Source of the DNA: Candidatus Aenigmatarchaeota archaeon
GTDB lineage: Archaea > Aenigmatarchaeota > Aenigmatarchaeia > CG10238-14 > SCSR01
Length of the DNA stretch: 64,000 bases
Assembly: GCA_038998335.1 (NCBI GenBank)
Contig: JAVZHQ010000001.1
Location: forward strand, 352,001 to 416,000
Direction: 5' to 3'
The position numbers and the translations under genes were made by a program. This document shows positions 39,118 through 64,000 of the stretch, one piece after another. Every line of letters starts with the position of its first letter. Within the stretch, counting starts at the first letter, position 1. The notes under the pieces were generated by a model, which saw only the letters and a program-made list of their open reading frames with translations, made no database searches and was not told the origin of the DNA.

Positions 39118-39214
39118 GCGCCAGTAATCTAACCTGGTAGGATTAACTATACTAATACCAGCTTCCCAAATCTGGAATAAGCTGGGTGTCCGGGTTCAAA
39201 TCCCGGCTGGCGCA
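39118..39214 (+). tRNA. tRNA-Gly(CCC) with two introns (39144-39156 at 25/26; 39169-39179 at 37/38)
   Basis: GCGCCAG/CTGGCGC; cloverleaf restored by removing both inserts; TTCC/GGAA helix at 37/38. Confidence 0.88.
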
Positions 39215-53023: not shown

Positions 53024-53132
53024 GCTGGGATAGTTCAGCGGTTAGAACGCGGCGCTCATAAGCTTTATGAGCTTTGAAAAAATGATGAAAGATGAAACGC
53101 CGAAGTCCCGGGTTCAAATCCCGGTCCCAGCA
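53024..53132 (+). tRNA. Elongator tRNA-Met(CAT) with 36-nt intron 53062-53097 (best BHB at 38/39)
   Basis: GCTGGGA/TCCCAGC, CGGCG-CT-CAT-AA|CGCCG; BHB helix TCAT/ATGA. Confidence 0.9.
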
Positions 53133-55646: not shown

Positions 55647-57193
<1,547 letters not shown>

Positions 57194-57309: not shown

Positions 57310-57765
57310 TTAAATTCGATCTTGATCTTTAAGGAACTCTAAGGTTTGGAGAAGTAATTCTTCAAAACGATAAAGAGCTTTTTTGTTTCCAAAAATTTCT
57401 ATAATACCAAAATTTGTAGGAAAGTCTCTTAACTTCCACATCTCATAAGGATAAGGGAATAATCTGTCAACGAGATTTTTTTCTTGTAGATAAAAAGCTA
57501 AATCCCTAACAATGCCTTTATCACAGAACTCTAGTTCAAAAATCGTTGGCGAATAATCATCACAACTGTGCACACCTAAACAAACCTTCGAGAATTTTGA
57601 CAGAACTTTTATTTTACTTTCCTTTCTCGCAAAACATTCCAAGTCAACAAAAATAAAATTCCCATTATTATCGTACTTCTTCATCAGTTTTAAGCAATAG
57701 TTTCTCGCATCTCTATCCTTATCTAACCCGAAAAGAATTCCAACATAGTTTTTTACTTCTGTCAT
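57310..57765 (-). CDS. Hypothetical protein
   Basis: 151-aa ATG ORF. Confidence 0.55.
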   Translation of the reverse strand: MTEVKNYVGILFGLDKDRDARNYCLKLMKKYDNNGNFIFVDLECFARKESKIKVLSKFSKVCLGVHSCDDYSPTIFELEFCDKGIVRDLAFYLQEKNLVDRLFPYPYEMWKLRDFPTNFGIIEIFGNKKALYRFEELLLQTLEFLKDQDRI

Positions 57766-57792
57766 CTTGAAAATAAAAATACTTTAAAAGAT

Positions 57793-58599
57793 TTAACTCT
57801 TAACTATTTGACCCAGGAAATAACTAGCTATTTCAAATTTACCAGTTCTTAGGAAACCAGTCGTATGATCTCTCAGCAAATATATAGTTTCCCTAAGCAT
57901 GAGAGTATGCGAAGGAGTAATGTAAGGAATTATGTAATTGTTGTTAAAACCTTGTAAAGAAGCTTTTTCTAAGCATTTCCTTATATCTTCTTTAAAGAAA
58001 TTAAAAGCTAAATCAAAACTTTTGAACCTTGAGTCTAAGCCAGAAATCAAGGCCAAGTTGTTTTTTCTAGCATAATTTATAGCTTCTTTGTTTGCTTTTT
58101 TAAGACCCTTTTTTAATGAAGGAATAGATTCCAAGTAATAGCTTACTTCTATGAAAGGTTTGTGACAAATTTCACCTTTTTCGTAAAGTTTAATTATCTC
58201 GTCTGCTCTTTTACCCAACCCGCAAGGTCCAAACTGGTGCGGAACGACAATAAATCCTTCATCCCTTTCTATGCTCTTGCAAACATCTTCTAAATTTTTT
58301 GGTGAGATCTTGTTTTCCCATCTTTCTGGAGTTAAGCATAAACCCAAAATATGATAATTGTCGAAAGTCAAAAATTCTAAACCAAAAAGCAAGTTTTCTT
58401 TTTTTGCTTTAAGGTAAGATTTGATCTCTTTGAAAGCTTTTATCGGCAAATCGATTTTTTCACACGCAAAAGCTTTATCAGTAAGAATAAGATAATCTAC
58501 TTTGCTTTTTTCAAAATCTTCTGCTAATTTTTTTGAAGTTTTTCCTAGGTTAAGTTTTTCTCCTTCTTTTGTATGGTAATGGATTGTTACTAAAGGCAT
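57793..58599 (-). CDS. Divergent PHP-domain-like protein
   Basis: HYHT, LILTD, GLE, HILG, VPH, GLDS. Confidence 0.6.
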   Translation of the reverse strand: MPLVTIHYHTKEGEKLNLGKTSKKLAEDFEKSKVDYLILTDKAFACEKIDLPIKAFKEIKSYLKAKKENLLFGLEFLTFDNYHILGLCLTPERWENKISPKNLEDVCKSIERDEGFIVVPHQFGPCGLGKRADEIIKLYEKGEICHKPFIEVSYYLESIPSLKKGLKKANKEAINYARKNNLALISGLDSRFKSFDLAFNFFKEDIRKCLEKASLQGFNNNYIIPYITPSHTLMLRETIYLLRDHTTGFLRTGKFEIASYFLGQIVKS

Positions 58600-58654
58600 A
58601 CTTATTTAAATAGCTCTAATCTTCAAATCTATTGCTCAAAAGTAAAGTTTTATT

Positions 58655-59389
58655 CTATGTAATATAAGGTTTGTAATTTTCTCCAAAAGCTCCCATAATC
58701 ATTTTTTTTAATTCTTTCTCGAAGAAGCTCCTACAAGTTTTATAAAATGGATAAAATATTTTATATATACTTTCACTTTTCTTTTCATAATCCACAAACT
58801 TCGCTTTCAGTTTTTCTCTTGTGTACTCGTACAATTCTTTGGTACTGATTGTTTGAATTTCATTACAACCATAAAACTTTCTAAAAGTACATAATTGAGG
58901 GTTGGCAATCCCTTTATCATATTCTTGGATTTTAATTTTTTTACCCCATTCCTTAGAGGAATTTATCAACCCGATTTTATAAGGATTTTCCCGATCCGAC
59001 AACCTACAGATTAAAATGCTTTCGCTTAGTTCTTTTCCTGGTACAGGCATAATAGAAGCGATAAGAAAATAATCACAAAAATATTGAATTCCTTTTATCT
59101 TTTCTTCGTCCAGGAAAGTTGAAGAATTGTGAAGGATTTTTCTTACCGGTGCCCCTGGACCCTCGACTATAGAATGATTCAAGAGAGACGGCCTTGAATA
59201 TAATAAAGTGAGAAAACTTAAACCGATTAAATGACCTGTAAGGGGTTCTTGTACTTCTTTATCTCTTCTGAAAAGTTCAAACATAAAAATGTCCAAAACC
59301 TGTACTCCATTTAAACCAGTTTTTTCTTTGGCTTCCTCAAGAGTTGATTGAAATTCTGCCCACATTGCTTCCTCTTCTTGGATATCCAT
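58655..59389 (-). CDS. Hypothetical protein
   Basis: 244-aa ATG ORF. Confidence 0.55.
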   Translation of the reverse strand: MDIQEEEAMWAEFQSTLEEAKEKTGLNGVQVLDIFMFELFRRDKEVQEPLTGHLIGLSFLTLLYSRPSLLNHSIVEGPGAPVRKILHNSSTFLDEEKIKGIQYFCDYFLIASIMPVPGKELSESILICRLSDRENPYKIGLINSSKEWGKKIKIQEYDKGIANPQLCTFRKFYGCNEIQTISTKELYEYTREKLKAKFVDYEKKSESIYKIFYPFYKTCRSFFEKELKKMIMGAFGENYKPYIT

Positions 59390-60514: not shown

Positions 60515-60576
60515 GGTTGATGACTTGACTGACAGCGTCTGATAAAAGATGAAGAACGAACTGTCTTTATGAAACC
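60515..60576 (+). ncRNA. Box C/D sRNA B in 23S leader
   Basis: GGTT/AACC stem, C TGATGA, D' CTGA, C' ATGAAGA, D ATGA; both guides antisense to the peptidyl transferase centre (PTC). Confidence 0.85.
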
Positions 60577-62618
60577 AGAAGATGAAACTACCATAGGATA
60601 AGCTGGTCAAGAGGTCCTGGCAACAGTAGCCCACTTGGTGGATGGCTCGGCTTGGTTAGCCGAAGAAGGCCGTGCCAAGCTGCGATAAGCCTGGGTTATC
60701 CGCATGGAGGAGCTGACCCCAGGATTGCCGAATGGGATTCCTAGCCCGTTAAGGGCTATTTCGGAAGAAAAGGGAACGCGCCGAAGTGAAGCATCTTAGT
60801 AGGCGCAGGAAAAGAAATCAAACGAGATTCGGTGAGTAGGGGCGACCGAAAGCCGAACAGGACAAACCGAACTTTCTTTCGAAGAGGAAGAAAGGATGTG
60901 GAGTTACAGGACTTGGGCCTTTCCTAGCTTGCTAACCTGAAGTGAGCTGGAAAGCTCCACCATAGAGGGTGATAGTCCCGTAGGGGAAGGCAAGAAGGAA
61001 AATGCCAAGTCTCCTGAGTACCATTCCTTGGATATGGAGTGGGAATTTGGGTGGCATTAACATCCAATCCTAAATACTAACCAAGTCCGATAGCGGACTA
61101 GTATCGTGAGAGAAAGCTGAAAAGTACCGCGAAAGCGGGGTGAAAAGAGCCTGAAACCAAGTTGGGCATAGTCAGCTAGGGCATGAAAGGTGCTACTCCG
61201 AAGGAAATTCTCGCAAGAGAAGAGTACGAGGAGTAGCTTACAGTGTCCTAGCATCCGTTCTGAAAAACGGGGCAGGGAGTTTGCTCGAGTAGTGAGGTTA
61301 AGGGGTTTAAACCTCGAAGCCAAAGCGAAAGCGACAAGCCCGTAGTCTCGCAAGAGACGTGGGGCGGGGTGTGAAAGCGCCTGAAATTACTCGAGCAAGA
61401 CCCGAAGCCGGTCGATCTAATCCTGGGCAGGATGAAGTTCCTCGAAAGAGGAATGGAGGTCCGAACCGGTGCTGAGACCCAATCGCTCGGTTGACCCAGG
61501 ATTAGGGGTGAAAAGCCAATCGAGACCGGTGATAGCTGGTTCCTCCCGAAATGAGCGTCAGCTCAGCCTGGTTGGAGGTAAGCAGTAGGGTAAAGAGACT
61601 GATTGGACGGTCAAGGTGCGAAAGCATCAGCCGTCCTGTCAAACTCTGAATCTACTGCTGCCTGAGAAGACCGGAGTGAGGGTACTGGGTTAAGCTCGGT
61701 ACCCAAAAGGGGAACAACCCAACCTGGGGTTAAGATCCCTAAATGCCGGCTAAACGAAGAAGGGAGTCCAAATCCTTAGACAGCGGGGCTGTAGGCTTAG
61801 AAGCAGCCATCAGTTAAAAAGTGCGTAACAGCTTACCCGCCGAGGGTTTGGGCCCTGAAAATGGAAGGGACTAAGCCGGCTGTCGATACCCCAGACCTGC
61901 GAAAGCAGGGGGTAGGGAGGCGTTCTGCATGGGTAGAAGCTTGTTCGTGAGAACAAGTGGACCGTGCAGAATTGAAGATCCTGCCATGAGTAGCAGCATA
62001 GCTGGGTGAAAATCCCAGCCGCCTGAACCCTCAGGGTTTGCCAGCAATGTTCGTCAGCTGGCAGTTAGTCGATCCTAAGGGCGCTCTTAACCGAAGCGCT
62101 CAAAAGGGAAATCGGTTAATATTCCGATACCATGGAGGTACGTGCGGCAACGCAAGCTAGCTTTCCGACGTTTCGGGATAGGCCGACGCAAGTTAACTGC
62201 CGAAGCCTGCAGAGTCTCGTAACGAGGAGAAGCAGGTGAAAGCAGGAATAGCTCCGCGTATGCGGAGTTCGGCCGATTCCTGGAACCCGTGAAAAGGGAA
62301 GCTAGAAGGATCCTCCATGATCGTACCAAGAACCGACACAGGTAGGGTCGCTGAGAAGGCGAAGGCGTGTTGGGAGAACCCAATCCAGGGAAATCGGCAA
62401 ATTGGCCCCGTATCTTCGGTAGAAGGGGTGCCTGTTCTCTCGAAAGGGAGAACAGGTCGCAGTGACAAGGGGGAAGCGACTGTTTAACAAAAACACAGGA
62501 GACTGCTAGTCCGAAAGGATTTGTACAGTCTCTGAGGTCTGCCCAGTGCCGGTGTGTGAAACCCGGTTCCAACCGGGAGAAGCCCCGGCAAACGGCGGCG
62601 GTAACTCTGACCGTCGTA

Positions 62619-62664
62619 ACTCAGGGCGGTCATCTGATTTGATGATACGCCGCCTGGGCGACAT
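62619..62664 (+). other. 23S BHB intron (46 nt) at about 1927 with D'/C' K-loop
   Basis: GTCG-TA|A ... CGAC-AT|A. Confidence 0.9.
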
Positions 62665-62792
62665 AAGTAGCGTAATCCCTTGCCGTTTAATTGACGGCCC
62701 GTTCAACGGCTTAACGACTTCCCCACTGTCCTGGGTTGGGACCCAGCGAAAATGCTGTTCTGGTGAATAGGCCAGAGACCTCCGGTGGGAAA

Positions 62793-62823
<31 letters not shown>

Positions 62824-62976
62824 GCGTTGCTGTAAGGTTGAAATTGCATAGAGTAGCTGGGACTCGCTATTAGGCGCAGGCTTCGGCCGAGGCTGAGAGG
62901 AAAGTGTAACACCAGCCCTTTTCAACCTTACGGCTTACCCGTAAGGGGACAGCGTCAGATGGGCAGTTCGGCTGGG

Positions 62977-63060
62977 AGTTTAGGAGCTAGAATGAAGAGT
63001 CCCTTAAGTTATGAAAAAATGATTAAGGGCATACGGTCTGAACAGCTCCTAAACCAGCAA
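62977..63060 (+). other. 23S BHB intron (84 nt) in P-loop (2252/2253) encoding a full box C/D sRNA
   Basis: GCTG-GG|A ... CAGC-AA|G; removal restores GGCTGGGGCGG. Confidence 0.93.
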
Positions 63061-63115
63061 GCGGTACGCCCTTGGTAAGAGATCAAGGGCGCCCAAAGCT
63101 CAGCTCATCCGGGTC

Positions 63116-63212
63116 ATGTCAGAAGTTGAAGCTATGATTACACTGCTCCAGAATGATTTAAAGATGAGTATGGAGGTAGCTTATGAGCTTTCATCAACTT
63201 CTGACACCCGAA
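63116..63212 (+). other. 23S BHB intron (97 nt) at about 2306 encoding a full box C/D sRNA
   Basis: CGGG-TC|A ... CCCG-AA|A; removal restores CCGGGTCAGAAATCCGG. Confidence 0.92.
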
Positions 63213-63384
63213 AGAAATCCGGAGTAGAGTGTAAGCGCAAAAGCTGGGTTGATTGGATCCCGCAAAGCGAGGGATCCAAGGGCGAAAGCCTGGGCTAGCG
63301 ATACATCGGTTCGCCTTAATGGCGGCCGGTGGTATCAGAAAAGCTACCTCGGGGATAATGGGCCCGTGGCCGGTGAAAGCCCAC

Positions 63385-63427
63385 AGCTCAGGGGTTTTCA
63401 TCCCACTCGATAGCGACGAGCGGGTAA
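63385..63427 (+). other. 23S BHB intron (43 nt) at about 2477
   Basis: GCCC-AC|A ... GGGT-AA|A; removal restores AGCCCACATTGAC. Confidence 0.88.
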
Positions 63428-63526
63428 ATTGACCCGGCGCGTTGGTGCGTCGCTGTCGGCTCCCCCCCTCCTGGCCGTGCAGTAGCGGCCAAGGGTACAG
63501 GTGCCCACTGGTTAAAGGGGGACGTT

Positions 63527-63560
<34 letters not shown>

Positions 63561-64000
63561 GCTATCTACCGGAGGTGCTGGCTGTCTGACCGGAAGGATG
63601 GGTGAGTACGAAAGGAACACCCATCCGTGGCCTCTGGTCTACCGGTTGTTCATCGCACAGCCGGGCAGCTAAGCCATAGCGGATAAGTCCTGAAGGCATC
63701 TAAGGACGAAACCGCCCGGGAAAATAGGCAGCCAATTGCTCTGCTATTCCGCAAGGAACGGTAGAGCAACGAGGGCTCTCCTAGACGAGGAGGTTGATAG
63801 GAAGGGGGTGTACGCGCCAAGCTTTCGAGCGAGGCGTTCAGCCCGCCTTTCCTAATCGCCCGAGGTTGCCAGGACTTGATAAGCAGCTTATCCTATGGTA
63901 GTTTCAAAAGTTTTTTTCTAAAATAAAAAAGTTAAACTTTTTTTTCTTAATTTAATTTGTGAAGATTGAAGTGTACATAAGAAATAGAGAAGTTGAAATT

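Follow-up and report, generated by a model that had tools for sequence, protein, structure and literature searches.

A 46-nt BHB intron in the 23S rRNA gene of an aenigmatarchaeon is a probable natural half-guide for methylation of C1920

Introduction

The closest described counterpart of the element analysed here is the BHB intron of archaeal pre-tRNA-Trp (Haloferax; sR50 in Pyrococcus). It contains a C/D guide for the formation of Cm34 and Um39 in the host exons. That intron we take to be a complete sRNA with both C/D and C'/D' motifs. The genomic contexts of C/D sRNAs include tRNA introns, with the tRNA-Trp guide acting in cis or in trans (PMC7994747); the passages of that paper that deal with such contexts do not mention rRNA introns. 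The intron that we describe, at position 1927 of a 23S rRNA gene, shares with the pre-tRNA-Trp intron a putative guide directed at its own host exons and the accompanying question of cis versus trans action (PMC7994747). It differs in lying within 23S rRNA, in having a D'/C' K-loop only, in its single boxed guide and in its length of 46 nt.

In vitro, hemi-RNP or half-mer C/D complexes consist of one box motif and one guide, as the 1927 intron does. A single-motif hemi-RNP was found to be active in vitro and not site-specific, and the bipartite architecture was described as absolutely conserved in natural complexes, in the relevant passages of Hardin and Batey 2006 (PMC1635284). Such hemi-RNPs were engineered, whereas a half-guide at position 1927 would occur in nature, tethered to the RNA on which it acts.

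BHB splicing is also common to the 1927 intron and the rRNA introns of Desulfurococcus, Staphylothermus and Pyrobaculum, which, unlike the 1927 intron, are long and often encode homing endonucleases. Conformational change around the splicing of archaeal rRNA introns is, to go by its title, reportedly the subject of a 1991 study by Kjems and Garrett. Part of a 2013 review calls for further research into whether rRNA introns give rise to noncoding RNAs (PMC3608112). Among the matches listed in our search of the open-access literature, no paper paired the term 'rRNA intron' with methylation guides, an unrelated Hfq review aside.

Helices H68, H69 and H71 are predicted 2'-O-methylation hotspots in archaea, according to the relevant part of PMC4644070. 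In bacteria, TlyA is described as forming Cm1920 in 23S rRNA and Cm1409 in 16S rRNA, and the former is the same nucleotide and the same chemistry that we predict for the guide in the 1927 intron. TlyA is a stand-alone protein enzyme, whereas the mark at the 1927 site would be RNA-guided, in a genome where we found no TlyA.

Results and Discussion

A spliced mini-intron at position 1927 of the 23S rRNA gene

We analysed a 64-kb stretch of DNA (hereafter the window) from a genome of 1.0 Mb with 33% G+C, assembled in 9 contigs and estimated to be 90% complete. The sequencing runs that hold this stretch are hot-spring and sediment metagenomes. Rfam models placed a 16S rRNA gene at 55647-57193 and an archaeal 23S rRNA gene at 60614-63875. 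Three minus-strand ORFs (151, 268 and 244 aa; 57310-59389) separate the 16S gene from tRNA-Ala, and the 16S and 23S genes therefore do not form one contiguous operon. The alignment of the 23S gene contained an unaligned insertion of 48 nt between GACCGUCGU and AGUAGCG.

We assigned this insertion to a 46-nt BHB intron at 62619-62664 on the plus strand, between E. coli 23S positions 1927 and 1928. For numbering, we aligned the intron-free sequence to E. coli K-12 rrlH in MAFFT; in this alignment 62611 corresponds to C1920, 62618 to A1927 and 62665 to A1928. The central helix H pairs the exon strand GUCG (62613-62616) with the intron strand CGAC (62659-62662), and is flanked by two three-base bulges, UA/A at 62617-62619 (cut after 62618) and AU/A at 62663-62665 (cut after 62664). 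Helix h' is formed by CUCAGGGCGG (62620-62629) and its partner at 62650-62658; the outer helix h is weak, which makes this a motif of the HBh' type. The 3' arm of the intron (62648-62658) reads CG and CCGCC followed by UGGG, the last belonging to outer h'. Two 3-nt bulges with a 4-bp helix between them are thus present here, and the same geometry, including all four pairs of helix H, is possible in 23 of the 23 distinct variants described below.

The intron is absent from the RNA. In contigs of the metatranscriptome runs X5 and X8 the bin holding the intron had zero depth, and the joint 62618 to 62665, which skips 46 nt, occurred in 9 contigs of run X5; in the DNA runs X1 and X2 the intron was present at the depth of its flanks and no joint was seen. 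The variable stretch of the host's 23S rRNA was covered about 1000-fold, with no differences, in two metatranscriptome runs. The joined RNA is identical to the rRNA of relatives that lack the intron, and on its own the joint is thus no proof that transcripts of this gene are spliced. Genes for the splicing enzymes EndA and RtcB are present in the host genome, as are those for fibrillarin, Nop5 and L7Ae. We conclude that 62619-62664 is a genuine, spliced BHB mini-intron. The excised introns were not covered in the RNA contigs; as small RNAs are usually lost from such libraries, this says nothing about the stability of the excised form. The match to RtcB (G000:C1:120751-122073, 547 bits) contains two TAA stops within a 494-aa frame.

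Among 41 relatives and the host genome that were searched, the H69 region was recovered from 23 genomes. A related intron occupies the 1927 site in six of these, the host included. There is no intron at the site in 15 relatives, with the junction GTC[G/A]TAAAGTA in every one of those listed, nor in G019, where a 1.07-kb insertion lies 9 nt downstream. One further genome, G010, has an unrelated intron of 35 nt at the same site, which carries no guide or box element.

A predicted guide for C1920 within the intron

Within the intron, GGCGGTCA (62625-62632) is followed by T (62633), CTGA (62634-37), TTTG (62638-41) and ATGATA (62642-47). At the RNA level we read this as a putative guide, GGCGGUCA, with an adjoining unpaired U (62625-62633), which is the local form of a GACGGUCAY guide that recurs in the clade; a D'-like box CUGA (62634-62637); a K-loop linker UUUG (62638-62641), whose length and sequence vary among variants; and a C'-like box AUGAUAC (62642-62648), with an invariant RUGA core and unconserved positions 6-7. 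The guide can form seven Watson-Crick pairs and one G-U pair with TGACCGTC at 62608-15 in the upstream exon, that is, with the RNA strand UGACCGUC (62608-62615) at the loop end and in the 3' strand of H69. The fifth base upstream of CUGA is G62629; its partner is C62611, the equivalent of E. coli C1920 and hence the predicted site of 2'-O-methylation. The CGCCGCC segment of the 3' arm (62648-54) can in addition form 7 bp with GGCGGCG (62594-600) in the 5' strand of H69, GGCGGCGG (62594-62601), and no D box follows it. The original prediction had claimed this entire arrangement, namely the 8-bp pairing with one G-U, C1920 as its N+5 target and a second, unboxed pairing segment; its coordinates and every base that it quoted agree with the window sequence, and the alignment with rrlH bears out the identity of the target.

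Several features of the element depart from a canonical box C/D sRNA. The position 12 nt upstream of D' (62615-21, CGUAACU) does not contain a box C, nor does a box D follow the 3' arm (62661-64, ACAU), and the same is true in the 22 variants; the terminal C/D k-turn of archaeal box C/D sRNAs is missing. This absence counts against a guide function. So does the C' box, whose positions 6-7 are unconserved, compared with AUGAAGA in bona fide sRNAs. The internal D'/C' K-loop, on the other hand, is present at the level of sequence, in the layout of the clade's bona fide sRNAs. Guides of archaeal sRNAs typically span 10-12 nt; here the register is right and matches that of canonical relatives, but the duplex has no more than 8 bp, including one G-U. 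A scan with the 12-nt guide returned scores at unrelated rRNA sites that equalled or exceeded the one at its proposed target, and the motif CTGA-N3-5-ATGAT was observed twice in the window against 1.23 occurrences expected. Neither the pairing nor the box motif of a single sequence is above chance, and the significance of the element therefore rests on comparison among relatives.

For the protein that makes this mark in bacteria, the host genome, about 90% complete as assembled, yielded no TlyA (TIGR00478): the best match scored 25 bits against a cut-off of 185.8 and covered only profile positions 1-50. The absence of tlyA had been proposed as a check on the prediction, and the result is in its favour.

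Canonical C/D sRNAs with this guide in related genomes

Insertions were surveyed in 45 of the clade's 23S sequences, and pattern searches followed. Canonical C/D sRNAs of relatives (G031, G034, G030 and others) share with the 1927 intron the 9-mer guide, the position of the D' box, the N+5 register, the K-loop layout and the target cytidine, whereas the intron lacks their terminal k-turn and second boxed guide and has a C' box degenerate at positions 6-7. The strict unit ATGA-N6-GACGGTCWY-NKGA gave 14 matches in 14 of 371 genomes versus one for a reversed control. In G031 the sRNA reads AUGAUGA-AACGACGGUCAU-CUGA-AGCU-AUGAAGA-GUAUCUAAUCCU-CUGA, with 12 nt before the last CUGA; its first guide forms 10 bp with H69 and places the same C at N+5, and its second guide is, by eye, the complement of the conserved 16S stretch AGGAUUAGAUAC. 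The guide duplex spans 9-10 bp in the canonical relatives versus 8 bp in the 1927 intron, a shortfall that speaks against the guide reading.

The unit occurs in varied surroundings, free-standing genes among them. Canonical C/D sRNAs bear it in G036, G014 and G034 (the last with CGGA as D'), and in G030 it lies within a cluster of sRNAs. It is placed in a 23S leader in G042 and G074, where it precedes the 5' end of the 23S by about 50-75 nt; in an intron of 82-86 nt at another 23S site in G027, G032, G096, G097 and G098, where the second guide pairs with GAAUGGCUUAA near H71; and in an intron at a third 23S site in G012. In G026 it sits in a tRNA intron, enclosed by an Rfam tRNA at 1443-1569 of L205, and by eye it is probably in a tRNA intron in G290 as well. 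Rfam called the tRNA of G026 and not that of G290; ARAGORN left intron-bearing tRNAs uncalled.

In the six genomes with the intron guide we found no second boxed copy, and the 1927 intron is absent from the four genomes of known 23S sequence in which a boxed copy lies elsewhere. Among the 17 relatives with an H69 region free of this intron, 13 yielded no recognisable C1920 guide, which counts against the proposed function. In G008 and G013, where H69 reads UGACUGUC, the compensated guide GACAGUCA gave two matches, neither of them boxed, a further point against. The occurrence of the same guide, box and register in canonical sRNAs indicates that C1920 is a C/D target in this clade and that the intron element is a local form of its guide. 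Together with the conservation of the element in 22 of 23 distinct introns, it supports the half-guide reading put forward in the original prediction.

Less specific searches were set aside. The loose pattern GRCGGTCWYNKGA gave 24 matches and its control 24, and only box-bearing contexts were accepted; we took as chance the unboxed matches in G037, G006 (three), G014 (one), G017 (two), G020 and G016. A looser version of the unit (9 matches versus 6 for the control) added no new case. An initial GTDB pattern scan was too loose, with only six 23S rRNAs among 119 matching stretches, of which about 80 were listed, and a scan of GC islands and a 9-mer antisense scan were too noisy to use.

Conservation of the guide and boxes among 1927-site introns

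An exon-anchored scan of metagenome contigs (36 loci), combined with GTDB and the loci of relatives, yielded 23 distinct introns at the 1927 site in 46 loci. The arrangement G[G/A]CGG-UCA-Y-NUGA-(3-9 variable nt)-RUGA is kept in 22 of the 23. Among these 22 variants the 5' part of the guide is GGCGG in 21 and GACGG in one; UCA and RUGA are kept in all 22, and NUGA in 21. The D' box is CUGA in 9, UUGA in 10, AUGA in 2 and, in the variant L153, UUAA, a departure that weighs against the guide reading. Between the two UGA motifs the loop takes 18 different forms, 3-9 nt long; the 3' linker is variable too. Invariant GA dinucleotides around a freely varying loop are, at the level of sequence, the pattern of a K-loop and would be superfluous in a plain hairpin.

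The change from GACGG to GGCGG in the intron preserves pairing with the target through a G-U pair and gains one G-C pair in h'. The substitution appears to reconcile the demands of two pairing partners; in the loci L012 and L174 GACGG is retained and its A is bulged. The CG that precedes the 3' arm is present in 21 of 22 variants, and seven pairs with the 5' strand of H69 are possible in 20 of 22. The G of this CG can also pair, within h', with the U of UCA, a point against the guide reading.

Competing folds and a proposed order of events

The guide duplex uses 62613-15, within helix H (62613-16), and 62625-29, within h'. These shared bases make the guide fold and the BHB mutually exclusive, as had been predicted and as follows from the coordinates. 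CCGCC of the 3' arm has a corresponding choice between GGCGG (62625-29) and the 5' strand of H69. Nearest-neighbour energies, calculated without protein, were -19.3 kcal/mol for H69 with the intron hairpin, -15.6 kcal/mol for the BHB and -25.9 kcal/mol for a double clamp, in which the guide and CGCCGCC occupy the 3' and 5' strands of H69, respectively, and the K-loop lies in the junction.

We propose the following model, in which pre-23S rRNA would supply its own guide for Cm1920. The two intron arms would open H69, the guide engaging its 3' strand and CGCCGCC its 5' strand. The D'/C' K-loop at the tip of the intron hairpin (CUGA-UUUG-AUGAU) would bind L7Ae and, via L7Ae, Nop5-fibrillarin, and GGCGGUCA would direct methylation of the H69 3' strand with C62611 at N+5. 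Having no terminal C/D k-turn, the intron would be a natural half-guide. Because the clamp fold excludes the BHB, methylation would precede splicing; the likely sequence would be clamp formation, binding of L7Ae-Nop5-fibrillarin, Cm1920, refolding to the BHB, cleavage by EndA and ligation by RtcB. Alternatively, the excised intron may act in trans on C1920. From these comparisons we estimate a probability of about 0.7 that 62619-62664 is a functional, natural K-loop-only half-guide for Cm1920.

Alternative explanations

The K-loop might instead be an L7Ae-binding structural cap that helps the intron to fold or to be recognised for splicing; no methylation would then be guided, and the complementarity to H69 would follow incidentally from the likeness of a GC-rich stem to that helix. 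GGCGG is also required by h', which detracts from any reading of it as a guide; the intron arm GGCGGU is identical to the 5' strand of H69, so cross-pairing is automatic; complementarity alone is insignificant; and the terminal C/D motif is absent. Such a cap, however, would not account for an invariant UCA that carries the pairing on into the loop of H69. Nor would it account for the presence, in canonical dual-guide sRNAs of relatives, of an identical guide with the same box and register, or for the complementary distribution of the intron and the boxed copies elsewhere, and we regard it as unlikely. The missing C and D boxes and the degenerate positions 6-7 of C' would equally suit a C/D sRNA that was once inserted beside its own target and has since decayed into a non-functional fossil, as would the element-free 35-nt intron of G010 at the same site. 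Yet the guide, the GA of D' and the GA of C' are kept over 22 distinct variants while the adjoining loop and linker are free to vary, and six carrier genomes have no other boxed C1920 guide, so that decay appears quite improbable.

Chance resemblance to boxes in a plain extended hairpin, with UCAUC paired to GAUGA around a UGAUUU loop, draws on the MFE fold, in which UCAU(C) is predicted to pair with (G)AUGA, a point against the guide as modelled. The fifth pair of this stem is C-G here and U-A in some variants, and roughly one occurrence of the motif per window would arise by chance. The UGA of D' would lie in the loop of such a hairpin, yet 21 of 22 variants keep UGA while loop length ranges over 3-9 nt; only 8 of the 22 have a standard fifth pair, and L161 and L012 show an uncompensated C-A mismatch in the core UCAY/RUGA stem. 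We consider a plain hairpin very improbable, and favour the half-guide.

Other guide-bearing elements in the genome

The same 23S gene holds a second intron, of 84 nt and with a canonical hBHBh' motif, at 62977-63060, which interrupts the P-loop between E. coli G2252 and G2253. This intron is a C/D sRNA complete with both guides (AUGAAGA-12 nt-AUGA-AAAA-AUGAUUA-12 nt-CUGA), which form 11 and 10 contiguous Watson-Crick pairs with 16S rRNA at 56571-82 and 56862-73 and give U56575 and U56866 as N+5 targets. The RNA runs show it removed, and G001 and six metagenome loci conserve it, with covariation in its terminal stem.

The gene for tRNA-Met(CAU) at 53024-53132 contains an intron with a K-loop-only layout, in which the guide UUAUGAGC is followed by U, UUGA, AAAA and AUGAUGA, and the C and D boxes are absent. 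The guide pairs with the exon sequence GCUCAUAA in the anticodon arm and has C34 at N+5, a layout that is kept in 8 distinct sequences from nine relatives' loci. A UGA near the 3' end of this intron could alternatively contribute to the BHB by pairing with the anticodon-loop UCA. The tRNA-Met and 1927 introns have a common design: an exon target, a short loop, the guide, D', a loop, C' and the 3' arm.

In the 23S 5' leader we noted a candidate C/D sRNA at 60518-60573 (UUGAUGA-15 nt-CUGA-UAAAAG-AUGAAGA-ACGAACUGUCUUU-AUGA), whose second guide forms 10 Watson-Crick pairs and one G-U pair with 23S 63546-58. Its position is similar to that of the C1920 guide in G042 and G074. Strict scans of the host genome (RUGAUGA...CUGA with internal boxes) found no canonical C/D sRNA, one of them returning five unconvincing pairs; boxes in this clade are relaxed, for example AUGAAGA, and strict consensus scans therefore miss them.

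On balance we lean slightly against a broader generalisation, which we nevertheless put forward tentatively: that the Aenigmatarchaeota have a natural class of K-loop-only half-guides in BHB introns of rRNA (23S 1927, Cm1920) and tRNA (tRNA-Met, Cm34), each of which would methylate its own exon in cis through a fold incompatible with the splice-site structure, so that modification gates splicing. Members of such a class would have arisen by insertion of C/D sRNAs next to their targets and would replace stand-alone sRNA genes in reduced genomes.

If the half-guide reading of the 1927 intron is right, it would depart from the bipartite architecture described as universal among natural C/D guides, as tethering to the substrate would take the place of the second motif. 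It would also give a function to archaeal rRNA mini-introns, the question left by the 2013 review, and represent RNA-guided convergence on the H69 nucleotide that TlyA methylates in bacteria. Such a half-guide would then offer a simple system for examining the ordering of modification and splicing by competing folds, and the movement of guide RNAs among stand-alone genes, leaders and the introns of tRNA and rRNA genes.

Other insertions in the clade

The 23S genes of the clade (loci L008-L186) contain many short insertions at many sites, mostly flanked by stems that resemble BHB arms. Some insertions reach 340-570 nt, and box motifs were sought in a few of the insertions. The 1.07-kb insertion of G019 (L025), which follows GTAGCGTAA about 9 nt downstream of the 1927 site, may be a long, ORF-bearing intron. 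In the window, Rfam identified a tRNA of 97 nt at 39118-39214 that ARAGORN missed and that probably contains an intron.
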